From the NCBI GenBank assembly GCA_963665845.2, contig OY762492.1, positions 2,848,001 through 2,912,000 on the forward strand: a DNA stretch of 64,000 nt, read 5' to 3'. The translations under genes and the position numbers were made by a program. Numbering within the stretch: position 1 is the stretch's first letter; the number at the start of each line of letters is the position of its first letter. The notes beneath the pieces were generated by a model. That model searched no databases. It was not told the DNA's origin and worked only from the letters and a program-made list of their open reading frames with translations. This document shows positions 11,031 to 64,000 of the stretch, in pieces. This DNA is from Candidatus Poribacteria bacterium. GTDB lineage: Bacteria; Poribacteria; WGA-4E; GCA-2687025.

Positions 11031-13389
11031 GTTTCAACGCCGCCCGATGATCCCGCTGGCGGCGGCGTTCACAGCGGGAGTTGTCGGCGGCTATTACTCG
11101 CTCCATTCGGCGCTGGCTTTCGGCGGGGTTGCGGTTGCCGCGCTGGCGTCATGGCATGCGCGCGACTGGAAAATTGGCGCCTATGCGCTTCTTGCGTTCG
11201 TCGGCTGGGCGCGCTGGCACGCGCATATCGATACCCCCATTCGCGCGCTTGAAGACCGCCAGCCTGTCCAAGCGGAGGGGTATGTCGTTGAGCGGGCGGA
11301 ACGCGCCTTCGGCGTGGAGCTGACGGTTGTCGGGAAGGTTCTGCCGTCTGGGGAGCGCGGACGGCTGCTGCTGCGCTGTCCGGCGGAATTGCCGGCGGAG
11401 TTTTCCGCCGGCGCGATGGTCTCTGCGGGCGGAGAATTGCGCCAACCGACCCTGATGCGCAACCCGAACGGGTTCAACCAGGAGCTGTTTTTCAACGCGA
11501 AAGGAATCGCCGCCGCCGTTCGGATTCGCAAGCTGTCCGACATTGAGCGAGTCGGCGTCGGCGGTCCGTTCTGGATGCGCTCGGCGTACCGCATTCGACA
11601 GGCGTTGCTCGCGCGTTTTTCCACCGCCCTAAGTCCGCCGAACGACGCCCTCCTGGCAGGCATTCTGATTGGGGAGCGGCGCGCCATTCCCGAAGAGATA
11701 CTGGAAGCGTTCCGCGATGGCGGCGTCATCCATGTACTGGTCGTCTCCGGCGCCAATTTTGCGCTCATCGTCTCCATCGCATATATGCTCTTGCGGGCGT
11801 TGGGCGCGCCGATGCGCGCGGTATACGCCGCCTCGCTGTTTCTATGCTGGGCGTTCGCTTTCTTTGTCGGCTTTCATCCGTCCGTCGCGCGGGCGGGGAC
11901 GCTCATCGCGCTTTTCATGCTGGGGCGGCTGCTGAATCGGGAAGCGGACCTGATGAACCTGCTGGCGGCAAGCGCGCTCGCGCTGCTCATCTACCGCCCC
12001 GCCAATATGTTCGACATCGGCTTTCAGCTCTCCTTCGCCGCCACCTTCGCCATCGTCTTTTTTGTGCCGAAATGGAACGACGGGCTTGAGCAAACGCGCC
12101 TCCGCCTCTTGAAACTGCCCGGCGGAAAGCTGCTGTGGACATGGGGCGTTCAAACGGCGCTCGTTTCATCCGCGGCAAATATCGCGACGATGCCGATCAT
12201 CGGCTTTCATTTTCAAAAGATATATCTGGCGGGCTTCGCGGCAAACCTGGTTGTGATCGCGATGATCGCGCTCATCACCGCGTCCGGCCTCATCACCGCC
12301 GCGGCGTCGTTGATATGGACGCCGCTCGGACGCTTTTACGGCGGCGCGACGGAGCTGGGATTCGATCTGCTGCTGCCGATGGTGCGCGCCTTTTCGGAGC
12401 TGCCTTACGCCGTGATGAACGCGCCTCGAACATGGGCGGGATACTATTTCGTCGGCATGTTTCTTCTTTTGTCGATCACATACGCCCGCTATGTTCAGGC
12501 GCGTCTGCGGGAGTGGACGCTGCTCGCGGGCGCGTGCGTCCTGCTTTGGATGCAAAGCCAAACCGCCGGCGCGCCGAACGGTCTGCTTGAAACGACTTTT
12601 TTAGATGTCGGGCAGGGAGACGCCGCCTTCGTTCAGCTGCCCGACAACACGCGCATTCTGATCGACGCCGGTTCCGCCTCCGAGTTCTGGGACAACGGCG
12701 AGCGGGTCGTCGTTCCGTATCTGTTGAGCCGCGGAATCGACCGCCTCAACACGGCGCTCATCACCCATTCCGACATTGACCATGCGGGCGGCATCCCGTA
12801 TGCGGTACGCAACCTGCGGATCGACACGATTCTGGGCGCGCCGCCGGGGAAAAGCGGACTGATAGAAGAAGCGGCGCGGGAGAGAGGAAGCCGCGTACGC
12901 TACGGCGCAGGAGAAACGATCGCAGAAGGCATAGCGCGCGGAAAGCCGTTTAGCGTCAAGACGCTTTATCCGCGCACGGAGGCGGAGGTGGACCTTGAGG
13001 ACTCAAACCATAACGCAGATTCGTTTGTCGTCATGCTGGAGTACGGCGATTGCCGAATTCTGATGACCGGCGACATTGACGCGCAGACCGAGGAGGAGCT
13101 GACAAGACGCCATCATCGCGGCGAGATCGACCTGTCGGCGGATATACTGAAGACGCCGCACCATGGCAGCAAGTCGTCCAGCGGGGAGCCGTTTTTGCGC
13201 GCCGTGTCGCCGCGCGCCGCGGTCATTTCCGCCGGACGCGGAAATATCTACGGACATCCGCATCCGTCCGTTTTAGAACGGCACGCGGCGTTAGGCATTC
13301 AAACCTACCGAACCGACCTGTCAGGCGCGATCCGAATCCTCTCGGACGGACGGCGCATATGGATCCAGCCGACAATACGCCAACCTTAG
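11014..13389 (+). CDS. comEC: DNA internalization competence protein ComEC/Rec2
   Basis: RNPNGF, GVIHVLVVSGAN, GFQLSF, FLDVGQGD, THSDIDHAGG, HHGS, YGHP; alternative start 11047. Confidence 0.93.
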   Translation: MLERSKFQRRPMIPLAAAFTAGVVGGYYSLHSALAFGGVAVAALASWHARDWKIGAYALLAFVGWARWHAHIDTPIRALEDRQPVQAEGYVVERAERAFGVELTVVGKVLPSGERGRLLLRCPAELPAEFSAGAMVSAGGELRQPTLMRNPNGFNQELFFNAKGIAAAVRIRKLSDIERVGVGGPFWMRSAYRIRQALLARFSTALSPPNDALLAGILIGERRAIPEEILEAFRDGGVIHVLVVSGANFALIVSIAYMLLRALGAPMRAVYAASLFLCWAFAFFVGFHPSVARAGTLIALFMLGRLLNREADLMNLLAASALALLIYRPANMFDIGFQLSFAATFAIVFFVPKWNDGLEQTRLRLLKLPGGKLLWTWGVQTALVSSAANIATMPIIGFHFQKIYLAGFAANLVVIAMIALITASGLITAAASLIWTPLGRFYGGATELGFDLLLPMVRAFSELPYAVMNAPRTWAGYYFVGMFLLLSITYARYVQARLREWTLLAGACVLLWMQSQTAGAPNGLLETTFLDVGQGDAAFVQLPDNTRILIDAGSASEFWDNGERVVVPYLLSRGIDRLNTALITHSDIDHAGGIPYAVRNLRIDTILGAPPGKSGLIEEAARERGSRVRYGAGETIAEGIARGKPFSVKTLYPRTEAEVDLEDSNHNADSFVVMLEYGDCRILMTGDIDAQTEEELTRRHHRGEIDLSADILKTPHHGSKSSSGEPFLRAVSPRAAVISAGRGNIYGHPHPSVLERHAALGIQTYRTDLSGAIRILSDGRRIWIQPTIRQP

Positions 13390-14144
13390 CGGCGTTTCAA
13401 ACGCGCCCAGGTCGAGGCGGCTTTGCCTTTAGGCGAGACGGAAAGCCCGCTGTTTGCCATATTCTCCTCAAGATCGCCCAGCGTCAGCGCGCGGTTGTAG
13501 ATGGCGATCTCGTCCATGCGCCCCATCATGCTGGTCAACCCTGTCTGCCCCTGCCCGATTCGGTAGGGTACCTCAATGCTGTCCAGCGGCGCGGCGACCG
13601 CAACTTCCGCATCCACCCCGTTGTTGATATACTGCCGCGCCTTCGCCCCGTCATAGACCGCCGCGATGTAATGCCATTTATTCAACGGCGGGGAAATATC
13701 CTGCCGGTCCCGTGTGCCGTTCCATCCGCCTTTATGCCACCACGTTTCAATCTGCGGCCTCCCTGTGAACTGGGAGCTCCACTGCATGGCGTGTCCGCCT
13801 TGGTTGCCGGCGTTGCGCCTTCCCATGATGGAGGAATCGCCCTGGTCCTGAGTCGGATAAATCCAGACGGTGATCGTGAGCTCCTCGGTCAGATCCAGTA
13901 TCGGCGTCGGGTCAATGAGTATGTGATCGCCGGGCGCATCGAATATGACGCATCCGCCGTTTTGGCCGTCTTTTGACCAGCCGACGCCGTTCAGAGTACC
14001 GACCAGTTCGCTTTCGCTCAAGTCGTTAGCCGTGTCGCCGGCGCCTTCATCGAACGGAAAATAGAGAACCAGCCCGTCCTCCTGTATCGCCTGCGCTGTC
14101 CACGCGGTCATGACAAGCGCGGCTAAAATCGTGATCCGTTTCAT
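13386..14144 (-). CDS. Secreted LamG/concanavalin A-like domain protein
   Basis: Signal peptide, LVLYFPFDEG.G, WHYIAAVYDG, G.MDEIAIYNRAL, C-terminal SVSPKGKAASTWARLK. Confidence 0.9.
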   Translation of the reverse strand: MKRITILAALVMTAWTAQAIQEDGLVLYFPFDEGAGDTANDLSESELVGTLNGVGWSKDGQNGGCVIFDAPGDHILIDPTPILDLTEELTITVWIYPTQDQGDSSIMGRRNAGNQGGHAMQWSSQFTGRPQIETWWHKGGWNGTRDRQDISPPLNKWHYIAAVYDGAKARQYINNGVDAEVAVAAPLDSIEVPYRIGQGQTGLTSMMGRMDEIAIYNRALTLGDLEENMANSGLSVSPKGKAASTWARLKRR

Positions 14145-14211
14145 GTTGCCTCCTCTTTTAATCGAGCCTCACTTCTTTCCCTGTTTCAGACGACTGTTCC
14201 ACCGCAAGCAG
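14042..14211. repeat. 170-bp direct repeat, left copy (attL-like)
   Basis: Matches 16903-17072 (offset 2861) with 8 substitutions. Confidence 0.95.
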
Positions 14212-14457
14212 CGAACCAAGTCGGCGCAAATGTAAACGGTCAAAACAGACTCCCATGCGCGCCTCTATTTTAACCCGATCGGCGCGTTGATGTAACCCGA
14301 CCTCCTGACCCTTCGCCTGCGCCGGACAGCATGAACAATGATACAGCCTAGACCCCTCCCGTCGCCATTGCGGTTAATGCGCCAGCGGATCACTGTTAAG
14401 ACACGATACAGAAGCGGAGGAATTGGAGGCGGAGTTCGTTGCGCTATGAAAAAGTTG

Positions 14458-14486
14458 TTGCCGCGCCAAAGAATCTCCGCTATAAT
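14458..14486 (+). promoter_or_regulatory. sigma70 promoter driving the island cassettes
   Basis: TTGCCG-17 bp-TATAAT, followed by a leader hairpin GTTCAG-GTCGGGAC-G-GTCTCGAT-TG-CTGAAC. Confidence 0.6.
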
Positions 14487-14552
14487 CAATGGGAGAGTTC
14501 AGGTCGGGACGGTCTCGATTGCTGAACGCCGAACACCGTGAAAGGAGCAAAC

Positions 14553-14657
14553 ATGAAACGATACACAATTGCTGCAGCGGCAGCGCCCTTGATGGCGTTC
14601 ACGCCTATGGCGGACGCGCATCAAATGCTTCTGGAAAGGAGCCCTCATGTCTTTTGA
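14553..14657 (+). CDS. 34-aa signal-peptide-like ORF (cassette remnant)
   Basis: GAAAGGAG RBS; MKRYTIAAAAAPLMAFTPMADAHQ...; header nearly identical to that of the 15515 gene. Confidence 0.4.
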   Translation: MKRYTIAAAAAPLMAFTPMADAHQMLLERSPHVF

Positions 14658-15450
14658 CGCTTTGAATGAAAAGCACGCAGATCAGCCCTACCTGTGGGCG
14701 AAGGAAGTGCTTGGAGTGGAATTATACTCTGTCCAAAAGCGCCTGCTGGAGGAACTTCAATCTCCACAAGATGAACCCGTCAGGATGGCGATCAGAGGTG
14801 GGGTTGCCACAGGCAAAACCTTCTTAGGAGCGGTGGCTGCCCTACACCACTTCTTCACGCGACCTGGGTCGCTGGTCATCTGCTCGTCTCCTGGTCAGTT
14901 ACCAAGTAGCCAACCGCTGTTCGGTGAAATCAGGTCACTTCTTGAAAGGTCTCCCGTGCGGGCGTTTGAACAAGTCCGAGTTCGGCACGATGAAATTCGA
15001 ATGTTGGATGCAGATGGTGAGGAGTATGCAGATGGTGAGGAGTACCCTGAGTGGAAAATTCAGGCGATCCTTGCGGAACGTTTCCATGCCTTTGAAGGCA
15101 TACTCTCTGATGGCGGGACTTTCGTGATCTTGGATAACGCGGCTGAAATCAAAAACCGCACCTTCAAAACCTTACTCTCCCAAGGACATGCGGTCGAGAA
15201 GGTGATGCTTATTTCCGCTCCTTATAGCAGTGATGGCTTTTTCTTCAACGCCGCTCAAGGAGAGAAAGGTTTCCGCCCCCACAAGATCAGCGCGTTTGAC
15301 ACCCCTGCGTTTACGGAGGAGTCCTGGGCGCCTCCAGGTCTTGTCAGTAAGGCATGGGTTTCATCTATGGAAAATGAGCACGGCAAGGAAAGTGCTTTCT
15401 ACACCGGGATGGTGGAAGGGGAATTTCAAGAGGACGACAGGGAGACCTGA
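14647..15450 (+). CDS. Phage terminase large subunit-like ATPase domain only
   Basis: P..WAKEVLGVELY..Q, Walker A GGVATGKT, Walker B-like FVILDNA, ISAP....GFF, ISAFDTP.F, PGLVS..W....G.ES..Y...VEGEF; no RNase H nuclease domain. Confidence 0.75.
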   Translation: MSFDALNEKHADQPYLWAKEVLGVELYSVQKRLLEELQSPQDEPVRMAIRGGVATGKTFLGAVAALHHFFTRPGSLVICSSPGQLPSSQPLFGEIRSLLERSPVRAFEQVRVRHDEIRMLDADGEEYADGEEYPEWKIQAILAERFHAFEGILSDGGTFVILDNAAEIKNRTFKTLLSQGHAVEKVMLISAPYSSDGFFFNAAQGEKGFRPHKISAFDTPAFTEESWAPPGLVSKAWVSSMENEHGKESAFYTGMVEGEFQEDDRET

Positions 15451-15514
15451 AATCTTTTCAGATAGGGCGGGCTACGGCTCGCCCTTCTTCAAACGCTCTA
15501 TGAAAGGAGCGAAC

Positions 15515-16039
15515 ATGAAACGATACGTAATTGCTGCAACTGCAGCGTTCATCCTGGCAGGGATTTGCGGTGTCGTAAACGCTGCGCCCAAAGACGACCT
15601 GGCAGCTAAGAAAATAAAACTGGCGGCTATGTCGGAAGGTATTTTAACGCCCCAGTATAACGAAAAATCGCCGAGAACGGCTTTTCTGCTTTCAGTGGCG
15701 CTGCCTGGCGGCGGTCAGTTTTATAATGGAGAGGCGGGCAAAGGGGCGGCTTTTCTTCTGACCTCTGCCGCTGGTTTTCTTGCATTCGTCTATCCTGAAG
15801 AAGTCCTAGACTTGTTTACAGACGAAGAATATTCCCGCTGGAGCAGTGATGACGATATCAGGTTCATCAAAATTATGGGGGCAATTACCTGGGCAGGATA
15901 CGCGATCTGGTCTGTAATAGATGCTCCAATCCAAGCGAGTAAGATCACCGCGCGGAACAAGCACCGCCATGAAATCAACGCCTTTCTATCGACGCCAAAA
16001 AATCCAAAATTTGGCGTCCTGATTTCAACGCGATTTTGA
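15515..16039 (+). CDS. Exported membrane protein (TM2/DUF5683-like)
   Basis: Signal peptide, KSPRTAFLLSVALPGGGQFYNG motif, WSVIDA; start at 15515 with GAAAGGAG RBS. Confidence 0.7.
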   Translation: MKRYVIAATAAFILAGICGVVNAAPKDDLAAKKIKLAAMSEGILTPQYNEKSPRTAFLLSVALPGGGQFYNGEAGKGAAFLLTSAAGFLAFVYPEEVLDLFTDEEYSRWSSDDDIRFIKIMGAITWAGYAIWSVIDAPIQASKITARNKHRHEINAFLSTPKNPKFGVLISTRF

Positions 16040-16093
16040 GAGATAACCGCGGGAGGAGAAAATCCTCCCGCCGCACTAACGAAAGGAAGAAAA

Positions 16094-16870
16094 ATGAAAA
16101 AAATCATCGTTGCTGCAGCGGCAGCGCTCATCACTTTATCAGGCTGTTCGTCAGCAACGAATATGGTGGAAATGACCATGGAGGACAGGGTTCTGTTTGC
16201 TCCTGAGTTGTACGAGGTATGGCAAGATGCGCTCTTGGCGTTGGAGGAGCGGTACCAAGAGCAGGAAGGCGCGTCCAAGAAACTTCAGGCTGCTTTGTCG
16301 GAAGATACTTGGGATCTTTTATCTCTCGCTTTTGAGACAGTCCAAGACGCGAAAGATCCTTCCTCCCGCCAACTGGCTACTGAAACTCTCGAAATTGCCA
16401 AAAGAGCTGCAGAAGATGAGGCGCCGTTGGAATTGGGTGTATTCTGGGCGGCATACTCTAAAACTGTCGATGCGAACAAAATAGTTGAGAGGGAATTGAT
16501 GACGTTTTATGCTGGCACCGCAGGAGCGGAGAAGGGCGTTACGGCGTTAAAAAGTCTGCAATCTAAAAATCCGGGAGCTTTTGACAAATTCCAAACAGCG
16601 AGGAAGTATCTCTTTGAAATCGCCCGTAAAGAATGGGACGATCTCGAATTGAGCCGCGCCAGATATGTGAATATTCTCAATGGATCTGCGCCCAAGGGAG
16701 CTTCCGTGAGTCAGGCGAAGGAGAAATACAGCGCCGCCAAGGATGCTCTGGCAAAAGTGGCCCCTCAGGAATGGTCCGAATATATTGCAGCAACGATGGA
16801 GATCCGCAGGCTACATCCTGAAGTTTGGCATGACTACGTAGACGCCAAGGCTCGCGTGTACGTGAGGTAA
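16094..16870 (+). CDS. Hypothetical alpha-helical lipoprotein
   Basis: MKKIIVAAAAALITLSGC lipobox; GAAAGGA RBS. Confidence 0.7.
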   Translation: MKKIIVAAAAALITLSGCSSATNMVEMTMEDRVLFAPELYEVWQDALLALEERYQEQEGASKKLQAALSEDTWDLLSLAFETVQDAKDPSSRQLATETLEIAKRAAEDEAPLELGVFWAAYSKTVDANKIVERELMTFYAGTAGAEKGVTALKSLQSKNPGAFDKFQTARKYLFEIARKEWDDLELSRARYVNILNGSAPKGASVSQAKEKYSAAKDALAKVAPQEWSEYIAATMEIRRLHPEVWHDYVDAKARVYVR

Positions 16871-16902
16871 TGCGTCGCGCAATCAGGGGGCGGGATTCTG
16901 AT

Positions 16903-17072
16903 CGCCTTCATCGAATGGGAAGTAGAGAACCAGCCCGTCCTCCTGTATCGCCTGCGCTGTCCACGCGGTCATGACAAGCGCGGCTAAGATCGTGATCCGT
17001 TTCATGTTGCCTCCTCTTTTAATCGAGCCTCACTTCTTTCCCGGTTTCAGACGATTGTTCAACCGCCAGCAG
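16903..17072. repeat. 170-bp direct repeat, right copy (attR-like)
   Basis: Matches 14042-14211; holds the intact 3' end of the oxidoreductase and a truncated LamG 5' end. Confidence 0.95.
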
Positions 17073-18005
17073 TATTTCAACGACATGCGTCGAATGTTCG
17101 TTTGAAATCGGGGGCGGCGCGCCGTTTTCAACCGCTTCCACAAACGCGGCAACTTCAGCGGCAACGCCGCCTCCCTTCGGAACCTCCACAGGCTCATACT
17201 CCTCATCGGTCATGAGCCAGACATTTCCGCGGTACGGCTCGGTTCGTATGCAGCCCTCCGTCCCGACGATCTCGCCGATATATCCCGGCTTTTCCATCAT
17301 CCGTTCGGGTCGGCGATGTCCAGCATGAACGATGACAGCGCATGTTCCATTTTCAAAATGGAGCAGCGCGGCAACCGCGTCGTCCGCTTTCTGCCGCATG
17401 ATTTTATGGGAGATGATGCCCTTCGCCGAAACGACTCGGCTTTCCAAAAGAAAAAGGAGACGGTCCACCATGTGCGACCCGTTCATGAACCACATACCGC
17501 CGCCTTTGGCGCGGTCGTTGAACCATGCGGGCCGCCCCTCCAAGCCGTAGGATTTATGCCAGCATTCGTCCGCCATGACGATGTCCCCGATCCGCCCTTC
17601 GCGCAGCAGCCGCCGCGTGACAAGATTCGCCTGAAAAAACTGCTGCGTATGCCCGACCATCAGCTGAACGCCGTTGGCGTCCGCCGCCGCGGTCATCTCG
17701 CCGCACTCTTCAAGGGAGACCGCCATCGGCTTCTCGACCAGCGTATGAACGCCGGCGTTGAGGCAATCGATGGCGATCGGGGCGTGGAGCCAGTGAGGCA
17801 ACCCCAGCAGCGCCAGATCAATCTCCCCGTCCGAAAGCATCTCGCGGCGGTCGGCGTAGGCGGCGCAGCCGTGCCGTTGAGCGAACGCTTCGCGCCGTTC
17901 CTCATGCGGCTCCGCGACGGCATGCAGCCGCAGCCCTGGAACCGATTTGACAGCGGCGGCATGCCCGCTTGATACGCGGCCTGCGCCGATGACGCCTACG
18001 CGCAT
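17019..18005 (-). CDS. Gfo/Idh/MocA family oxidoreductase
   Basis: VGVIGAG, LPHWLH, VEKPMA, GGGMWFMNGSH. Confidence 0.92.
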   Translation of the reverse strand: MRVGVIGAGRVSSGHAAAVKSVPGLRLHAVAEPHEERREAFAQRHGCAAYADRREMLSDGEIDLALLGLPHWLHAPIAIDCLNAGVHTLVEKPMAVSLEECGEMTAAADANGVQLMVGHTQQFFQANLVTRRLLREGRIGDIVMADECWHKSYGLEGRPAWFNDRAKGGGMWFMNGSHMVDRLLFLLESRVVSAKGIISHKIMRQKADDAVAALLHFENGTCAVIVHAGHRRPERMMEKPGYIGEIVGTEGCIRTEPYRGNVWLMTDEEYEPVEVPKGGGVAAEVAAFVEAVENGAPPPISNEHSTHVVEILLAVEQSSETGKEVRLD

Positions 18006-39559: not shown

Positions 39560-40975
39560 TTATTCGCCGGGATTATCCGGCTGCGTATCGTCATCCCCGG
39601 CGCCGTTGCCGGGGTCAGGATTGGCGGTATTCCCGCCTCCGTTGCCTGGGTTGTCTCCGCCTCCGTTGCCAGTGTTCGGGTTGTCGATGGGTCCGCCGGG
39701 ATCGGCTCCCTTGAGCGGATTTTCCCACAGCGCATGGAACATGGACGCGCCGTCCTGAATCTTCATGATGACAAGGTCTTTGACCGCGAGCCTGTTTTCA
39801 TCGAAATGAGAGATGACGGTGGCGCCGCGGTAGTCGCCGATCTTGACCAGCGCCTCAAGAATGGCGTCCCCGTCTAGCGGGTTGCTTGCGCCGACAGTGT
39901 CATCGTCGCCGCCCCCGTTTTCTGGGAGCGGGGTTGCGTTCACGCCCGCATTTTCAATTGCCTCCGCAAGGATCATCATGGCGTCAAACCCGTTTCCGGC
40001 GAAGCTGTCGGCGGGCATGCCGTAGGCGGCTTCATAAGCGGCGGCGAACTGCTGCGCTTCAGGAGTCGCGCTTGGCAGAAAGTCGATGGTGAAATAGGAG
40101 CCGTCCAGAACCGAGTTGTCGTCCAAGACGGAGAAAAGCTCGGCGGGATTGTCCCATCCGTTCGGTCCGATGAAGACGCCCTCGTAGCCGGCGGCGCGCG
40201 CTTGGTCAATAATGAGCGAAACCTCCGGCGGAAAACAGATCAAAAAACAAACGTCGGAGCCGCCGGCGGCCAGCGCCGCCGCATGCGCCGAAAAATCGAC
40301 CGTTTCGACAACATAGGTTTCTGCCGAGACGACGGAGCCGCCTGCCGCTTCAAACAGCTGCGTAAAGGACGCTGTCAACTGCTCCGAGTAAGCGTCTCCC
40401 TCCAGCGCGAGGATAGACGCCGTTTCCGCCTTCAGCTCCTTGCGCGCAAAGTCGGAGAGAATCGTCGACTGCAGCGGCAGGTTGGCGCTGATCAGCGCGG
40501 CATGGGAGTAGCTTTGCGTCACAACAGGCGATGTGGCTGCCGGGATGAACGGGGTCGTCGCGCCCGCTTGGTTCAACGCTTGACCGAGAGCGATGGAGCT
40601 GGTTGAAAAGAAGGGTCCGACAATCGCCGCGACGCCTTCGTTCTGAATCAGGTCTTGCGCCGCGCCGATGGTGGAGGCGGCGGTCGGGTACGGGTCGCCC
40701 CCTTGGTTGTCGCGCTTGACGAACTCCGCCTGGACGCCATGAATGCCGCCGTTGGCGTTGACATGCGCGAGGGCAAGCTCGGCGCCGAGGGAGAAGCTCG
40801 GGAAGTAGCCGGAAGGCTGAATCAGCCCGATTTTGACCGCATCGCCGCCAACAGGACCGGACGGGTCGGTGTCAAGCGCGTCCATCAATGAATCGCACCC
40901 GGCGATCATGAACACGCCGAGAGCCGCCGCAAGCGCAGCGATGACGCCCATTTTTGAGGTTGTTTTGAGGTTCAC
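39560..40975 (-). CDS. LivJ/LivK-like ABC substrate-binding lipoprotein (paralog 1, Gly/Asn/Asp-rich tail)
   Basis: AGC lipobox, KIGLI.P, G.ELA...N..GGI.G, AIVGP..S, G..GWD, G.DA; GTG start 40975 by homology to paralog 2. Confidence 0.9.
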   Translation of the reverse strand: MNLKTTSKMGVIAALAAALGVFMIAGCDSLMDALDTDPSGPVGGDAVKIGLIQPSGYFPSFSLGAELALAHVNANGGIHGVQAEFVKRDNQGGDPYPTAASTIGAAQDLIQNEGVAAIVGPFFSTSSIALGQALNQAGATTPFIPAATSPVVTQSYSHAALISANLPLQSTILSDFARKELKAETASILALEGDAYSEQLTASFTQLFEAAGGSVVSAETYVVETVDFSAHAAALAAGGSDVCFLICFPPEVSLIIDQARAAGYEGVFIGPNGWDNPAELFSVLDDNSVLDGSYFTIDFLPSATPEAQQFAAAYEAAYGMPADSFAGNGFDAMMILAEAIENAGVNATPLPENGGGDDDTVGASNPLDGDAILEALVKIGDYRGATVISHFDENRLAVKDLVIMKIQDGASMFHALWENPLKGADPGGPIDNPNTGNGGGDNPGNGGGNTANPDPGNGAGDDDTQPDNPGE

Positions 40976-41093
40976 TGAAATCCTTTCTAACATAGATGTA
41001 TGGATTCAACGGCTTTCACTAAACCGATAACGAGATGGGTTGTCAATTCGTTGACTCGGCTTTTAACGATCTCTACTTTATGTATGAGGTCAG

Positions 41094-42350
41094 TTAACCG
41101 CCCTCCGCTTTCTCGCGCTGAAGCGGATACGCATCGATCGGCTCGCCTGTCTCCGGACGCGGATCCAACGGCGGCATGCGCCGCTCCGCCGCCTCGATGG
41201 CGGACGCCAGCCGCTCCCGTTTCCGCGCTTCAATATCGGCGCGCCGCTCCTGAAACGCCGGCATCGTCTCCTCGGCGAAGAGTTGAAGCGACTCGCAGAT
41301 ATGCTCATGCCGATTATTGCCCGCCTGCTGCAAAAACACGACCTGGTCAACGCCCGCCTCCTCCATCTTGAAAAGCCGCTCCCCGACCTGCTCAGGCGTT
41401 CCGATGCCGACTCCTCCGCTCTTGAAAGCGGTCCCCCCTAGCTGTTCAGGCATTTCTTTGCCGTCTCCGCCGCTTCCAGGCTTGTTGTTCCGCTCCTTAA
41501 ACCGCTTCCAGATGTCGGAGCGCCCAGGCTGATGCGACCCGTTCACATAATAATGCGCGAGCGCAAACTGAAAGAAACGAAACCCCTCCCAGCCGCGTTC
41601 GAACGCCGTCCGCTCATCCGTATGGCACGAAAAGCTGGCGACCATCGCCACATTCGGATTCACCGCCCGTCCGATCGGCCGGCATTCCGTTTCAAAGACG
41701 CGGTAGTACTCGTCCACCCACATCTTCGCGTCTTCCGGGCTGACAAACGCAAACGCCAACGCGCCCATCCCTAGACGCGCCGCCCGCCGTATCGTCTCCC
41801 GACTCGAACAAGCGACCCACAACGGCGGATGCGGTTTCTGAACAGGCTTCGGAATCACATTGCGCGCGGGCATTGAAAAATGCTCGCCTTCATAACCAGC
41901 GTACGGCGTCTGCGCCATCATCTTTGCCGTTTCGCGCACCGACTCTTCCCACATGCTGCGCTTCGCTTCCGGCGCGATGCCAAATCCCTCCAGCTCCATG
42001 CGGGACGCCGACTCGCCCGTTCCCCATTCCACGCGCCCGTTCGACACAAGGTCCAGCGTCGCGATGCGCTCCGCAATGCGGGCGGGATGGTTATACGCCG
42101 GCGGATGCTGCACAATGCCATGCCCCAAGCGTATTCGGCTCGTCCGCTGGCTGCATGCCGCCAAAAACACCTCCGGCGCGGACGAATGCGAATACTCGTC
42201 TAAAAAATGATGTTCCACCTCCCAGACGCAATCGTAACCGAGGCGGTCTGCCAGCTCCGCTTGGTCCAGCGCCTCATGGTAGAGGCGCAGCTCAGAGCCT
42301 TCGTCCCAAGGGCGCGGCAGCTGATGCTCATAAAACAGGCCAAACTTCAA
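41094..42350 (-). CDS. LLM-class flavin-dependent oxidoreductase
   Basis: KFGLFYEHQ.P, WEVEHHFL.EYSHSSAPE, HPARIAERIATLD, PKP.QKPHPP. Confidence 0.93.
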   Translation of the reverse strand: MKFGLFYEHQLPRPWDEGSELRLYHEALDQAELADRLGYDCVWEVEHHFLDEYSHSSAPEVFLAACSQRTSRIRLGHGIVQHPPAYNHPARIAERIATLDLVSNGRVEWGTGESASRMELEGFGIAPEAKRSMWEESVRETAKMMAQTPYAGYEGEHFSMPARNVIPKPVQKPHPPLWVACSSRETIRRAARLGMGALAFAFVSPEDAKMWVDEYYRVFETECRPIGRAVNPNVAMVASFSCHTDERTAFERGWEGFRFFQFALAHYYVNGSHQPGRSDIWKRFKERNNKPGSGGDGKEMPEQLGGTAFKSGGVGIGTPEQVGERLFKMEEAGVDQVVFLQQAGNNRHEHICESLQLFAEETMPAFQERRADIEARKRERLASAIEAAERRMPPLDPRPETGEPIDAYPLQREKAEGG

Positions 42351-42385
42351 TCCAACGATCCTTCCGGTATTTTACAAGAGCAGGG

Positions 42386-43609
42386 TTATTCGGACGCCTT
42401 GAGCGGATTGTCCCATAGAGCGTGGAACGCGGACGCGCCGCCCTGAATCTTCATGACAACAAGGTCTTTCACCGCGAGCCTGTTCTCGTCAAAATGCGAA
42501 ATGTAGGTGGCGCCTTGGTAACCGCGTATCGCTATCAGGGCGTCCATGATCGCGCCGCCGGTCAGTTCCGCCCCGTCCGCTCCCGCCGTTTCCATCGCCT
42601 GCGCGAGAATCGACATCGCGTCGAACCCGTTGCCCGCCAGGCTGTCGACAGGCTCGTCGTAAAACGCTTCGTACGCGTCGGCGAACTGCTGCGCTTCAGG
42701 AGTCGCGCTTGGCAGAAAGTCGATGGTGAAATAGGAGCCGTCCAGAGCCGAGTTGTCGTCTAAGACGGTGTAGAACGCGCCGGGGACATCCCACCCGTTC
42801 GGGCCGATGAAGATCCCCTCATAGCCGGCGGCGCGCGCCTGTCCGATGATGAGCGGAACCTCCGGCGGAAAGCTGGTCAAGAAACAAACGTCGGAGCCGC
42901 CGGCGAGCAGCGTTTCCACATTCGCCGAGAAGTCGACCGAGGCGACAACGTAGGTTTCAGACGAGGCGACCGTCCCGCCGTCCGCTTCAAACGCCTGCGT
43001 AAAGACGGCGGTCAACGCCTGGGAGACGGCGTCCGCTTCCTGCGCGATGATGGCCGCCGTTTCCGCCTTCAGCTCCTTGCGCGCAAAGTCGGAGAGGATC
43101 GTCGCATGGAGCTGGGCGTTCGCGCTAATCAGGGCGACATTGGAGTAATACTGCGTCACGATGGGCGATGTGGACGCCGGGATGAACGGGGTTGTTCCGC
43201 CCGACTGCGTCAACGCCTGCCCAAGAGCGATGGAGTTTGTGGAAAAAACAGGTCCGATGATCGCCGTCACGCCTTCGTTTATGATCAGATCGCGCGCCGC
43301 GTCGATGGTGGAGGCGGCGGTCGGGTACGGGTCGGTTCCGATGTTGTCGCGTTCGATAAATTCCGCCTGCCTGCCGAGAATGCCGCCGCTGGCGTTGATC
43401 TGGGCGAGGGCGAGTTCGGCGCCCATAGCGAAGCTTGGGTAGGCTGCTCTAGGCTGAATCAGCCCCAGCTTGATCGTTTCATCCGAAGGCTCGGACGGAT
43501 CGGAATCGAGCGCGTCAATGAGAGTGTCGCATCCTGCAAGGATGACAATGCCGAGAGCCGCCGCAAGAGCCGCGATGATGATCATTTTTGAGGTTGATTT
43601 TATGTTCAC
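42386..43609 (-). CDS. LivJ/LivK-like substrate-binding lipoprotein (paralog 2)
   Basis: Highly similar to paralogs 1 and 3; LAGC lipobox. Confidence 0.9.
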   Translation of the reverse strand: MNIKSTSKMIIIAALAAALGIVILAGCDTLIDALDSDPSEPSDETIKLGLIQPRAAYPSFAMGAELALAQINASGGILGRQAEFIERDNIGTDPYPTAASTIDAARDLIINEGVTAIIGPVFSTNSIALGQALTQSGGTTPFIPASTSPIVTQYYSNVALISANAQLHATILSDFARKELKAETAAIIAQEADAVSQALTAVFTQAFEADGGTVASSETYVVASVDFSANVETLLAGGSDVCFLTSFPPEVPLIIGQARAAGYEGIFIGPNGWDVPGAFYTVLDDNSALDGSYFTIDFLPSATPEAQQFADAYEAFYDEPVDSLAGNGFDAMSILAQAMETAGADGAELTGGAIMDALIAIRGYQGATYISHFDENRLAVKDLVVMKIQGGASAFHALWDNPLKASE

Positions 43610-43718
43610 TAAAACCCTTTCTAACTTAGAGATATGGATTCAATGGCTTTCACGATGCCCAATAACGAGATGGGGCGTAAATTCGTTGATCCGACCTTTA
43701 ACTCCGAACTTATCCTTA

Positions 43719-43855
43719 AAGTTGGGACATGTCGGCATACGAACGCAGACGCCGTCCGCGACGCCTCTAGATTCCCGCTTACGCGGGAATGACGATCCGG
43801 TTGGCGACGCTTTTTCCCATGAATAAAGGCTTTGGTCATTCAGATGTCTCAACTT
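43719..43855. mobile_element. 137-bp MITE-like element, second copy
   Basis: AAGTTGGGACAT...ATGTCTCAACTT, internal hairpin 43771-43790; colinear with 30063-30199. Confidence 0.7.
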
Positions 43856-43872
43856 TACACATGAGATTGGGG

Positions 43873-45099
43873 TTATTCGGATTCCTTGAGCGGATTGTCC
43901 CATAGAGCGTGGAACATGGACGCGCCGCCCTGAATCTTCATGACGACAAGGTCTTTCACCGCGAGCCTGTTTTCGTCAAAATGCGAGATGTAGGTGGCGC
44001 CTTGATAACCGCGTATCGCTGTCAGGGCATCCATGATCGCGCCGCCCGTGAGTTCCGCCCCGTCCGCCCCCGCCGTTTCCATCGCCTGCGCGAGAACCGA
44101 CATCGCGTCAAACCCGTTGCCCGCTAGGCTGTCGACAGGCTGTCCGTAAAACGCTTCATACGCGGCGGCGAACTGCTGCGCTTCAGGAGTCGCGCCGGGA
44201 AGAAAGTCGACGGTGAAATAGGAGCCGTCCAGAACCGAGTTGTCGTCCAAGACGGAGTAAAAATCGGCGGGGACATCCCATCCGTTCGCGCCGATGAAGA
44301 CGCCCTCATAGCCGGCGGCGCGCGCCTGGTCAATGATGAGCGGAACCTCCGGCGGAAAGCTGGTCAAGAAACAGACGTCGGAGCCGCCGGCGAGCAGCGT
44401 TTCTACATTTGCCGAAAAGTCGACCGTTTCGACAATATAGGTTTCGGTCGAGGCGGCCGTCCCGCCGTCCGCTTCAAACAGCTGCGTAAAGGCGGCGGTC
44501 AACAGCTGGGAGTAGGCGTCCTCCTTCAGCGCGAGAATGGATGCCGTTTCCGCCTTCAGCTCCTTGCGCGCAAAGTCGGAGAGGATCGCCGCATGGAGCG
44601 GTACGTTCGCGCTGACCAGGGCGACATGGGCGTAATTTTGCGTCACGATAGGCGATGTGGACGCGGGGACGAACGGGGTCGTTTCACCCGCCTGCGTCAA
44701 CGCCTGCCCAAGAGCGATGGAGCTTGTGGAAAGGACAGGTCCGACGATCGCCGTCACGCCTTCGTTCTGAATCAGGTCGCGCGCCGCATCGATGGTGGAG
44801 GCGGCGGTTGGATACGGATCGCTGCCTTGGTTGTCGCGTTCGATAAATTCCGCCTGCCTGCCAAGAATGCCGCCGCCGGCGTTGATCTGGGCAAGGGCGA
44901 GCTTGGCGCCCATAGAGAAGCTTGGGCTTGTAGGATAAATCAGCCCAATCTTGATCGTTTCACCCGCGCCAGGCTCGGACGGATCGGAATCCAGCGCGTC
45001 TATGAGGGTGTTGCATCCGCCAAAGATGACGTAGAGAGCTGCCGCAATCGCAGCGATTATAGCGGCGGGAGATCGTTTTGAGGTCGCTTTTGTGTTCAT
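43873..45099 (-). CDS. LivJ/LivK-like substrate-binding lipoprotein (paralog 3)
   Basis: Highly similar to paralog 2; FGGC lipobox. Confidence 0.9.
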   Translation of the reverse strand: MNTKATSKRSPAAIIAAIAAALYVIFGGCNTLIDALDSDPSEPGAGETIKIGLIYPTSPSFSMGAKLALAQINAGGGILGRQAEFIERDNQGSDPYPTAASTIDAARDLIQNEGVTAIVGPVLSTSSIALGQALTQAGETTPFVPASTSPIVTQNYAHVALVSANVPLHAAILSDFARKELKAETASILALKEDAYSQLLTAAFTQLFEADGGTAASTETYIVETVDFSANVETLLAGGSDVCFLTSFPPEVPLIIDQARAAGYEGVFIGANGWDVPADFYSVLDDNSVLDGSYFTVDFLPGATPEAQQFAAAYEAFYGQPVDSLAGNGFDAMSVLAQAMETAGADGAELTGGAIMDALTAIRGYQGATYISHFDENRLAVKDLVVMKIQGGASMFHALWDNPLKESE

Positions 45100-61148: not shown

Positions 61149-62597
61149 CTAAAACAGGTTCAAGGTTTGATCGAGAACTTTGCCGGTGTACGGGTTTGTC
61201 ATGACGGGCATATCCGGACGCTTTTTGTTGAAATAGTCGCGTATCGACCAGAGCTGCAGGCGTCCGTATTCTACGCCGAGAACAGACGCCTTCCCGCACT
61301 TTGCCGCTTCCGCCCGCGCCTCTCTTGAGGCGACAGGGTCAAGCGTAATGAAGCAGCCGACCGCCGCCTTGTCGCGATTCAGAACGCCGATAAAGTCGCG
61401 CAGCGCGCTAAGGCTGAACCGCCCGCCCTTCACCTGCGCAAGCGCCAAGCGCGAGTCGATGTTGTCAGGTTTATGCGCCAATGTCGCCCTGCCGTCAATG
61501 CCCTTGTCGCCGACCTTCTTCGTGTTCGGCGCGAAACCTGGCAGCCGTGTGATCGCCCACGACTCAAAATCGAACGGTTTCTCCCGAGCCAGCATGCGCG
61601 CGGAAGCCATGTCGAACGGCATGCCCCTCGCCGGTATGCTCGGATCTTTCAAACGCACATTGCGGATGAGGTCGATAGCGAGGGAGGAGATGTCGATGCC
61701 CGCCCAGCGCCTGTTGAGACGCATTGCCGCTTCGATGGCCGTTCCGCAGCCGCAGAACGGGTCTAATACGACATCCTCCTCATTGCTGCTCGCCTTCACG
61801 ATCCGCTCCAACAGAGCGAGCGGCTTCTGCGTCGGATAATTCAAAAACTCCTTCGATGAGGAATGCTGCTGAAACGACATAATATCTGACCAGACAGAGG
61901 TCAACGCCACCCCAGGCGTCTCGTCAAGATACTGGCGGCGGCCGCCGGGGCGGTCGGAGCGGTAACGCCGTCCGTCTTCGTCTGCCTTGTTGAATCGCGC
62001 GATGTACTCTGGCTTATGCGGCGTATAATGTTTATTGAAAACAAAGCGCGACCGATCGTTCACATAATAAAAGATGGTGTCATGCCCGCGAATGTATCCA
62101 TGAACCGCCGATTTGTAACCCGACGCTGTTTGGAGATTCCAGATAATTTCCCGTCGGAAGTTGCGTTTGCCGAAGACCGCGTCCATGACGACTTTAAGAT
62201 AATGGCTCGCTGTCGGGTCGCAATGCAGGTAGATGGAGCCGGTCGGCTTCAAGAGGCGGCGCATATGTTCAAGGCGTTCCGCCATGTAGGTTATATACGC
62301 CAGCATGCCGCTCTCGCCCAGAACATGGTAAAGCCCAACAACTGCCTCATGCGCCGGCCGGGCGGCCGCGTCTCTAAACGCCGCATACCGTTCCACAGAG
62401 GCCGCGTCCCAATGCCAGGTGTCGTTGAACGCGCGGTACTGCGCCTTTTCCCCGTTGTCGACGGCGTTGGAGAAAAGGATGTTGTAGTTTGCGTTGGAGT
62501 TGAACGGCGGATCCAGATAGATCAGGTCGACGCATTCGTCCGCCCACTGCTCCATCCATTCGAGGCAGTCGCCGTAATATAAGGTGTTCAGCTCCAT
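61149..62597 (-). CDS. Beta-class DNA methyltransferase fused to Mrr-like PD-(D/E)XK nuclease domain (copy A)
   Basis: DPPFNS, YPTQKP, DPFCGCGT; C-terminal FE.W...D.GIDG...QVK.G; true start MELNTLYYGD at 62597. Confidence 0.9.
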   Translation of the reverse strand: MELNTLYYGDCLEWMEQWADECVDLIYLDPPFNSNANYNILFSNAVDNGEKAQYRAFNDTWHWDAASVERYAAFRDAAARPAHEAVVGLYHVLGESGMLAYITYMAERLEHMRRLLKPTGSIYLHCDPTASHYLKVVMDAVFGKRNFRREIIWNLQTASGYKSAVHGYIRGHDTIFYYVNDRSRFVFNKHYTPHKPEYIARFNKADEDGRRYRSDRPGGRRQYLDETPGVALTSVWSDIMSFQQHSSSKEFLNYPTQKPLALLERIVKASSNEEDVVLDPFCGCGTAIEAAMRLNRRWAGIDISSLAIDLIRNVRLKDPSIPARGMPFDMASARMLAREKPFDFESWAITRLPGFAPNTKKVGDKGIDGRATLAHKPDNIDSRLALAQVKGGRFSLSALRDFIGVLNRDKAAVGCFITLDPVASREARAEAAKCGKASVLGVEYGRLQLWSIRDYFNKKRPDMPVMTNPYTGKVLDQTLNLF

Positions 62598-62611
62598 GCC
62601 GCCGCTCCGCT

Positions 62612-64000
62612 TTAAAACAGGCTCAAGGTTTGATCGAGAACTTTGCCGGTGTACGGGTTTGTCATGACGGGCATATCCGGACGCTTCTTGTTGAAATAGT
62701 CGCGTATTGACCAGAGCTGCAGGCGTCCGTATTCCACGCCGAGAACGGACGCTTTGCCGCATTTTGCCGCTTCCGCCCGCGCCTCTCTTGACGCGACAGG
62801 GTCTAACGTGATGAAGCAGCCGACCGCCGCCTTATCGCGGTTCATAACGCCGATAAAGTCGCGCAGCGCGCTGAGGCTGAACCGTCCGCCTTTAACCTGC
62901 GCCAACGCCAAGCGCGAGTCGATGTTGTCCGGTGTATGCGCCAATGTGGCTCGACCGTCAATGCCCTTGTCGCCGACCTTCTTCGTGTTCGGCGCGAAAC
63001 CTGGAAGCCGCGTGATCGCCCATGATTCAAAATCGAACGGTTTCTCCCGGGCCAGCATACGCGCGGACGCCATGTCGAACGGCATGCCCCTCGCCGGTAT
63101 GTTCGGATCATTCAGACGCACATTGCGGATGAGGTCGATGGCGAAGGAGGAGATGTCAATGCCCGCCCATCGCCTGTTGAGCCGCATCGCCGCTTCGATG
63201 GCCGTTCCGCAACCGCAGAACGGGTCTAAGACCGCATCGCCCTCATTGCTGCTTGCCTTTACAATCCGCTCTAGCAGCGCGAGCGGTTTTTGCGTCGGAT
63301 ACCCAAGATACTCGCGGGAATTGCCCTTCAGCGGCGGGATGTATATCCAACTTTCTGGAAATTTCCCTCGCTCATCCAGTTCAACCTTTCCCGCCGCGAC
63401 CTTAGACGCTGTCGCCGCATAACCCTCTCGCGCACGGCTGCCGGGCGCGTAAGGCTGACGTATCTCGTCGGGGTTGAACGTCCACGCATCCCCGCGGGAA
63501 TACCAAAAGATAGTGTCATGCACTCTCGACAATTGACGCTGTCCCGGCGCAGAAGGTCGGCTGTAGCACCACACGATCTCATTGCGGAAGTTGCTTTTGC
63601 CGAAGACCGCGTCCATGACGATTTTAAGATAATGGCTCGCTGTCGGGTCGCAATGCAGGTAGATGGAGCCGGTCGGCTTCAACAGGCGGCGCATATGCTC
63701 TAAACGCTCCGCCATGTAAGTGATGTACGCCAGCATGCCGCTCTCGCCCAAAACGCGGCGAAGCCCAACAACCGCATCATGCGCCGGCCGGCCGGTCGCG
63801 TCTCTAAACGCCGCATACCGTTCCACAGAGGCCGCGTCCCAATGCCATGTGTCGTTGAACGCCCGGTACTGCGCCTTTTCCCCGTTGTCGACGGCGTTGG
63901 AGAAAAGAATGTTGTAATTCGCGTTTGAGTTGAACGGCGGATCCAGATAAATCAGGTCGACGCATTCGTCCGCCCACTGCTCCATCCATTCGAGGCAGTC
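62612..64000 (-). CDS. Beta-class DNA methyltransferase-Mrr fusion (copy B); 5' end just outside the window
   Basis: Nearly identical to copy A outside the central variable region; frame open to the window edge (DCLEWMEQW...). Confidence 0.9.
   Translation of the reverse strand, partial: DCLEWMEQWADECVDLIYLDPPFNSNANYNILFSNAVDNGEKAQYRAFNDTWHWDAASVERYAAFRDATGRPAHDAVVGLRRVLGESGMLAYITYMAERLEHMRRLLKPTGSIYLHCDPTASHYLKIVMDAVFGKSNFRNEIVWCYSRPSAPGQRQLSRVHDTIFWYSRGDAWTFNPDEIRQPYAPGSRAREGYAATASKVAAGKVELDERGKFPESWIYIPPLKGNSREYLGYPTQKPLALLERIVKASSNEGDAVLDPFCGCGTAIEAAMRLNRRWAGIDISSFAIDLIRNVRLNDPNIPARGMPFDMASARMLAREKPFDFESWAITRLPGFAPNTKKVGDKGIDGRATLAHTPDNIDSRLALAQVKGGRFSLSALRDFIGVMNRDKAAVGCFITLDPVASREARAEAAKCGKASVLGVEYGRLQLWSIRDYFNKKRPDMPVMTNPYTGKVLDQTLSLF

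Follow-up and report, generated by a model that had tools for sequence, protein, structure and literature searches.

A three-gene insertion flanked by two silently differing 170-bp copies of a gene junction in a Candidatus Poribacteria genome

The class of insertion with long target duplication reportedly goes back to Nobusato et al. 2000 (Gene 259:99). In the portions of Furuta, Abe & Kobayashi 2010 (PMC2853133) used here, it is defined by an insert of <20 kb, a duplication of >30 bp and the lack of any other mobile element; the repeats often span a start or a stop, the copies are often not identical, and most hosts are competent. These portions leave the mechanism as a hypothesis and suggest DNA breakage by restriction enzymes of the cargo. 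A similar scar is known from E. coli K-12, where e14 at icd (icdC) is accompanied by a coding duplication of ~165 bp (PMC11148124, in the part used here, citing Hill, Gray & Brody 1989). Here we report a member of the class from a Candidatus Poribacteria bacterium: a three-gene block lying between two 170-bp copies of the junction of a LamG-domain gene and a Gfo/Idh/MocA oxidoreductase gene. It is located in a stretch of 64,000 nucleotides (the window; C1:2848001-2912000), where C1 is the main contig of a genome (G000) that comprises three contigs and is 90% complete.

The two copies, left (L, 14042..14211) and right (R, 16903..17072) of the junction, align without gaps, with 162/170 identical positions and a spacing of 2,861 bp. 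Each contains LamG codons 1-34, a 13-bp spacer with the ribosome-binding site (RBS), and the final 17 codons and stop of the oxidoreductase gene. Both host genes lie on the minus strand and are intact. The LamG-domain gene (13386..14144, an open reading frame [ORF] of 252 aa; PF13385, 1e-21) has its first 34 codons in the left repeat, and the oxidoreductase gene (17019..18005, 328 aa, recognized as an ORF and by Pfam) has its last 17 codons and stop inside the right copy. The right copy also carries a dead LamG 5' stub (16883..17005, minus strand), in which 34 host codons are followed by six more and a stop (40 aa). A genome-wide blastn search with the repeat found these two copies only, plus a single 38-bp match at 84%.

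All eight mismatches between the copies (at 14055, 14058, 14061, 14127, 14182, 14194, 14200, and 14206) are synonymous, the codon pairs being TAT/TAC, TTT/TTC, CCG/CCA, and ATT/ATC in LamG and CTT/CTG, GTG/GTT, CAG/CAA, and ACA/ACC in the oxidoreductase gene. The probability of eight silent changes out of eight is 6e-6 to 2e-5 under random change; it rises to 2e-4 to 5e-4 when every site is taken to have a live copy and a dead one. A crossover at any of the 171 possible points leaves both host proteins unchanged. The preliminary description of this locus had given the same alignment and codon pairs, had held that both proteins are kept whatever the crossover point and that no integrase lies between the repeats, and had judged random decay an unlikely source of the pattern (P at most 5e-4 here); all of this is confirmed. 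Mismatches are unevenly placed, with one in the central 120 bp, where it separates perfectly matching stretches of 65 and 54 bp, and seven in the outer 50 bp, beside the host flanks (scan P = 0.0025 for a 120-bp stretch holding no more than one of the eight, with core bounds set after the data were seen).

The insertion with its duplicated junction is real and well supported. The site sits within a single contig, C1, of 3.95 Mb. In G001, a genome of the same genus, the LamG orthologue (83% identical) adjoins the oxidoreductase gene through a single copy of the repeat, with both flanks aligned; this is the empty site that the preliminary description had proposed to look for. A second empty site comes from run X5, a sponge metagenome from a different study, in which a contig joins 14096 to 16968 as a single-copy site. 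The cargo is present in G000 only among the 31 genomes searched. Runs X1-X4 belong to one study, possibly the source of the assembly itself, and three of them (X1, X2, and X3) contain a 2,801-base contig that carries the cargo with L-tail and R-head alleles and matches with zero differences; thus, neither the cargo nor either of the allele sets is an artefact.

The class assignment follows from a 170-bp duplication present in two copies only, a 2,691-bp insert without integrase or transposase, and an empty site with both flanks. What is shared with the cases in PMC2853133, as far as the portions used here describe them, is an insert of <20 kb, a unique duplication of >30 bp, no mobility gene, an empty site in a relative, copies that are not identical, and a target kept intact because the repeat spans a start or stop; the published hosts are mostly naturally competent. 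A reading of the locus as new in kind is not supported. There are differences, however. The published cases were picked for restriction-modification cargo, whereas no restriction or modification gene, nuclease, or methylase was found in the present cargo with Pfam, PHROGs, and PADLOC (0/3 proteins matched in the last), which places it outside the restriction-modification subset. The repeat described here spans both a stop and a start, and a (predicted) promoter is supplied by the insert, which differs from the class as portrayed in these portions. The word "synonymous" is absent from the main text of PMC2853133 as seen here, whereas the silent pattern at the present locus points to two strain alleles.

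Other systems resemble this locus in part, to judge from the parts of the sources used here. The e14 scar is likewise a ~165-bp duplication of a protein-coding gene with mostly silent changes and a functional gene, but e14 is a prophage with its own integrase that replaces the 3' end of one gene, whereas a two-gene junction is duplicated here and no integrase is present (PMC11148124). Unconventional circularizable structures (Palmieri et al. 2013, in PMC8401462 and PMC3742598) likewise have no recombinase and have extensive direct repeats; they are defined by demonstrated circles, carry resistance genes, and often reside in integrative and conjugative elements, whereas the present unit is known from its sequence only. 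Minimal mobile elements of Neisseria (Saunders & Snyder 2002, in PMC3787668) are likewise strain-specific genes that lie between conserved ones and move by homologous recombination, with no integrase involved, but they swap via the conserved flanking genes, and target duplication is not mentioned in the PMC3787668 description as seen here. Homology-facilitated illegitimate recombination (PMC5361080) resembles the donor-side join discussed below.

The silent-only pattern is best read as the presence of two working alleles from two strains. At the eight mismatch sites, G001 agrees with R at six and with L at two. Alleles of the L copy also occur at empty sites: run X7 has C, C, and A at 17055, 17061, and 17067, which are the alleles of the dead oxidoreductase tail of L; run X5 has A at 16988 and C at 17055; and G001 has A at 17067. 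Because L-tail alleles occur in these empty-site relatives, the two copies have the appearance of working alleles from two lineages. The preliminary description had viewed the repeat as a specially evolved, protein-preserving att site and had offered a junction copy from a related strain as an alternative; the former view loses its ground, since any two working alleles show silent-only differences, and the latter is the best supported of its claims, with relatives carrying several of the same alleles. The ratio of core to outer mismatches is 1:7 for L versus R, compared with 18:4 for G001 versus R (Fisher P 0.0011) and 15:2 for X5 versus R (P 0.0005), the core bounds being those given above. 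From the low core count we infer a strand-exchange tract across the core. Overall, we consider it likely that the 2.7-kb three-gene block entered by a RecA-type crossover in the single-copy junction, using DNA of a related strain. A crossover with a working strain allele is supported by the eight silent mismatches (at odds with decay) together with the empty sites in G001 and X5, and RecA, also named in the preliminary description, would be the likely agent.

Similar islets are found elsewhere in the genome. Word scans of C1 yielded 24 isolated repeat pairs, 16 of which are separated by at least 600 bp. Five of these 16 have a single-copy site in G001: both flanks are present for the studied site and for the pairs at C1:360738 and C1:1238652, and only 30-40 bp of left context for those at C1:977732 and C1:810890. 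One of the remaining pairs is the nested 47-bp repeat described below, and ten have one flank only, no fetched match, or a shared insert. GC content is below the 4th percentile in seven of eight inserts that were hand-picked from the repeat pairs. The longest of the other examples, a 182-bp pair (C1:977732-978630, L027), duplicates the 3' end of a GT9 glycosyltransferase gene with 7/8 changes silent. This pair flanks a gene for a 134-aa coiled-coil protein, and the insert gives the GT9 gene new last few codons and a stop; G001 agrees with the left copy at 3/3 informative left sites and with the right copy at 2/3 right sites. In the two longest examples together, 15/16 mismatches are silent. 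This indicates that the second copy served as a functional allele of another strain and favours homologous recombination with incoming DNA. At C1:360738, 810890, 1238652, 2207618, 2538799, 3452187, and 123035, inserts lie between 38-129-bp repeats of gene starts, gene ends, or promoters, and near-exact pairs of 128/129 and 70/71 are among those bounding other islets. The cargo of these islets includes a PD40 propeller, a TPR protein, and an Eco57I-like methylase (C1:2207618, a weak match), whose unannotated partner starts within the duplicated start.

The insert itself has three ORFs and a GC content of 0.514 versus 0.597 for the contig (0.3rd percentile of 3,000 random windows of the same length). 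Its left end is a captured leader: 14212..14296 (minus strand) comprises the promoter, RBS, and ~10 first codons of an ABC-permease gene, being ~80% identical, with a 1-nt deletion, to the region upstream of C1:1240790 (C1:1240737-1240818) and to its G001 counterpart. The permease and oxidoreductase stubs are fused at a Leu-Leu that the two sequences share. A mini-ORF of 32 aa (14158..14256, minus strand) begins with an ATG in this leader, runs in frame with the oxidoreductase 3' stub, and stops 13 nt before the LamG start. A promoter at 14296-14267 is predicted to be directed toward LamG; the captured permease promoter is predicted to re-feed LamG, which predicted minus-strand terminators would otherwise cut from its operon. 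On the plus strand, a promoter module (14426..14539; TTGCCG-17-TATAAT at 14458-14486) is 79-85% similar to other accessory loci of G000 and G001.

A nested 47-bp repeat on the plus strand (14539..14585 and 15501..15547, 89% identical) consists of the RBS and first codons of ORF2 and brackets ORF1, a scar of the same kind within the insert; its first copy begins a 34-aa remnant ORF (14553-14657) that overlaps the start of ORF1. A related RBS-plus-leader was also noted at the start of all three cargo units (14539-14585, 15501-15547, and 16081-16127; 89% and 79%). The shared leaders suggest stepwise gene accretion.

All three cargo ORFs lie on the plus strand, and none matches a recombinase family in Pfam or PHROGs. 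ORF1 (14647..15450, 267 aa; phrog_5902, 1e-10) corresponds to the ATPase domain of a terminase large subunit only and is 26-30% identical to three full-length terminases (448-477 aa). In motifs that we take to be Walker A, Walker B, and GNP, the GKT of Walker A is retained, the DE of Walker B reads DN, and GNP reads SAP. The protein stops at the linker and has no C-terminal nuclease domain, so that it falls short of a functional terminase large subunit. Because the Atlas holds clusters of similar length, this short form is not unique to ORF1. At ~15007-15045, ORF1 has a short tandem duplication (ADGEEY twice), which is an insertion relative to other terminases. ORF2 (15515..16039, 174 aa) has a signal-peptide-like start, weak DUF5683/TM2 matches in Pfam below the cut-off, and paralogues at 33-37% in G000 and G001. 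ORF3 (16094..16870, 258 aa) is an orphan with a lipoprotein-like N terminus (LPAM_1, E 0.03): it retrieved itself alone among 7,674 candidates and nothing in 120 other genomes, and its Atlas matches were under 0.9.

A crossover between strain alleles would involve several steps. Illegitimate joins in the donor lineage would have set a copy of the junction beside the cargo; one such join is visible, where the promoter and 5' stub of the permease gene meet the oxidoreductase stub at the common Leu-Leu codons. The unit may then have entered in circular form or as a repeat-cargo-repeat fragment, via transformation or a gene transfer agent (GTA)-like particle, and recombined inside the 170 bp, so that the two copies would be reciprocal hybrids of two working alleles. 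Strand exchange would have made the central 120 bp nearly identical. Such insertions would persist because neither gene is disrupted when the repeats span a stop and a start, and because LamG would be re-fed by the captured promoter. RecA would also be able to loop the block out again, leaving no scar.

The strongest alternative, to which we give a modest chance, is that break repair or template switching duplicated the 170 bp exactly and that ordinary recombination with empty-site strains later brought their alleles from each flank into the outer ends of the two working halves. The position of seven of the eight mismatches beside the host flanks would fit such an import, other islets are bounded by exact or near-exact repeats (38/38, 52/52, 128/129, and 70/71), and double-strand breakage is the mechanism proposed for the class in the portions of PMC2853133 used here. 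However, it would require two separate imported tracts, each ending tens of bases into the repeat, and the cargo has no nuclease domain to make the break.

Several observations count against a crossover between strain alleles, or against its generality. Mismatches of the 182-bp pair are evenly spread, so a homogenized core is not general; the short pairs at C1:123035 and C1:1238652 have only 1/3 silent changes each; and the two exact pairs (38/38 and 52/52 bp) are equally compatible with exact duplication. In the core of the studied repeat, G000-private alleles are not significantly enriched (6 in 120 bp versus 24 in 767 bp, P 0.18) and so give no indication of whose allele it carries. The alleles of G001, which is 13% divergent over the repeat, fit a crossover at the left end at 7/8 sites and a core crossover at 5/8. 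Neither a donor nor a circle was found in two viral DNA-pattern, two viral protein, and two metagenome scans, from which records very near G000 may be excluded: the core motif had no match in metagenome or viral contigs, the leader motif, ORF1, and ORF3 had none in viral contigs, and a search of metagenome contigs for a LamG donor gave nothing. Furthermore, G000 is only 90% complete, and it has 10 IS110-family matches (PF01548), 9 of them above the cut-off. Finally, the route is rare. In a census that used 2.39 Mb (about two thirds) of G001 for comparison and from which blocks of <300 bp, and with them C1:1238652, were filtered out, 6/56 G000-side insertions have terminal repeats of at least 50 bp, and of those six the studied insertion is the only one that reaches 95% identity without being a near-tandem copy; none of 15 G001-side insertions has terminal repeats of at least 30 bp. 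In the reverse check, the same 2.39 Mb of G001 contained 10 isolated repeat pairs, none with a clean empty site in G000. Long-repeat insertion is a minority route of gene gain in G000.

It is less probable still that the block is what remains of an e14-like prophage or satellite whose long attP replaced the LamG 5' end, with an integrase that was deleted or acted in trans. In the part of PMC11148124 used here, the icd duplication of e14, 165 bp long, has 12 changes, including two conservative amino-acid changes. A terminase domain is among the cargo, and the fit of the G001 alleles at 7/8 sites corresponds to a crossover between 14055 and 14058. On the other hand, there is no other phage gene in the block, its noncoding parts are host-lineage promoters, and similar islets occupy unrelated targets with 38-182-bp repeats and no common junction motif by eye. 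The preliminary description had raised the prospect of a larger element at the same site; none was found in the 30 other genomes searched. No phage-type integrase, and thus no cognate enzyme of the e14 type, was found in the 90% of the genome at hand, and the same searches gave no match to the serine recombinase families PF00239 and PF07508. Only two PF00589 proteins are encoded, both of which read as XerC/XerD.

We attach very little weight to a free 2,861-bp circle alongside an empty chromosome, or to a duplication produced when two haplotypes were joined in assembly. Contigs built from short words look the same whether the unit is integrated or a circle exists beside an empty site, none of those listed spans both repeats, and the insert depth relative to the flanks, a rough measure taken from contig depth, is 0.81, 0.88, and 0.85 in three of four runs (1.04 in the fourth). 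Against this, the site lies within one 3.95-Mb contig, the 2,801-base contig carries both allele sets in three runs, and no replication gene was recognized in the unit; the single long contig favours the integrated form. Least probable of all is a host IS110/Piv-type recombinase that would act in trans, its target being a short core inside the repeat: the 10 matches to PF01548 speak for it, but there is no ATTCCC-N8-GGGAAT hairpin in 13000-18000 although 866 are present on the main contig, and to our knowledge the cores used by IS110 enzymes are very short, and no long duplication results from their action.

Returning to a RecA-type crossover with related-strain DNA, the host has relevant machinery: G000 carries RecA and two DprA-family genes, and a ComEC gene is located 0.7 kb from the left repeat. 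A head-tail cluster (C1:2266919-2272781; L201:2920-8782) encodes a portal, protease, scaffold/cement protein, major head protein, adaptor, a protein of no assigned function, major tail protein, and a product that we read as holin-like. It is integrase-free, has a GC content like that of the host, and is conserved with 8/8 genes in the same order in G001 (83-97%) and 7/8 found in G002 (41-71%). A separate full terminase gene (C1:2250925-2252358, L176) is present in 4/8 family genomes and adjoins the portal gene in G002 and G004; compared with G001, it has 73 synonymous and 22 nonsynonymous codon changes. The cluster is a candidate domesticated GTA, and GTA-like particles could deliver DNA to G000. 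Among the papers listed in a literature search, none was, judged by its title, about a GTA of this phylum.

Other repetitive features occur in the window and elsewhere in the genome. IS110-family DEDD recombinases occur at 10 places on C1, with seven near-full matches, and may be linked to the hairpin repeats, which are dense at window 7883-46748. Tandem paralogue arrays are found at window 39702-44360 and 61150-63884, with 78-93% DNA identity and spacing near 1.45 and 2.6 kb.

A bolder extension, which we regard as a long shot, is that the unit is a recombinase-free mini-element that would cycle between circle and chromosome by RecA alone and be carried in the domesticated GTA-like particles of the host. 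The ATPase-dead, nuclease-less terminase could then act as a decoy, poisoning or biasing the packaging of DNA by phages or by the GTA-like system, and the nested 47-bp repeat would show gene-by-gene growth by the same insertion-duplication step.

This type of scar was already known. What the present locus contributes is evidence for a second copy that was once a working allele in another strain, and for an insertion that needs no nuclease in the cargo, unlike in the breakage-by-cargo mechanism suggested in the portions of PMC2853133 used here. In this symbiont, the insertion route accounts for a small share of strain-specific genes, and its repeats are built-in markers for mapping crossovers in populations.

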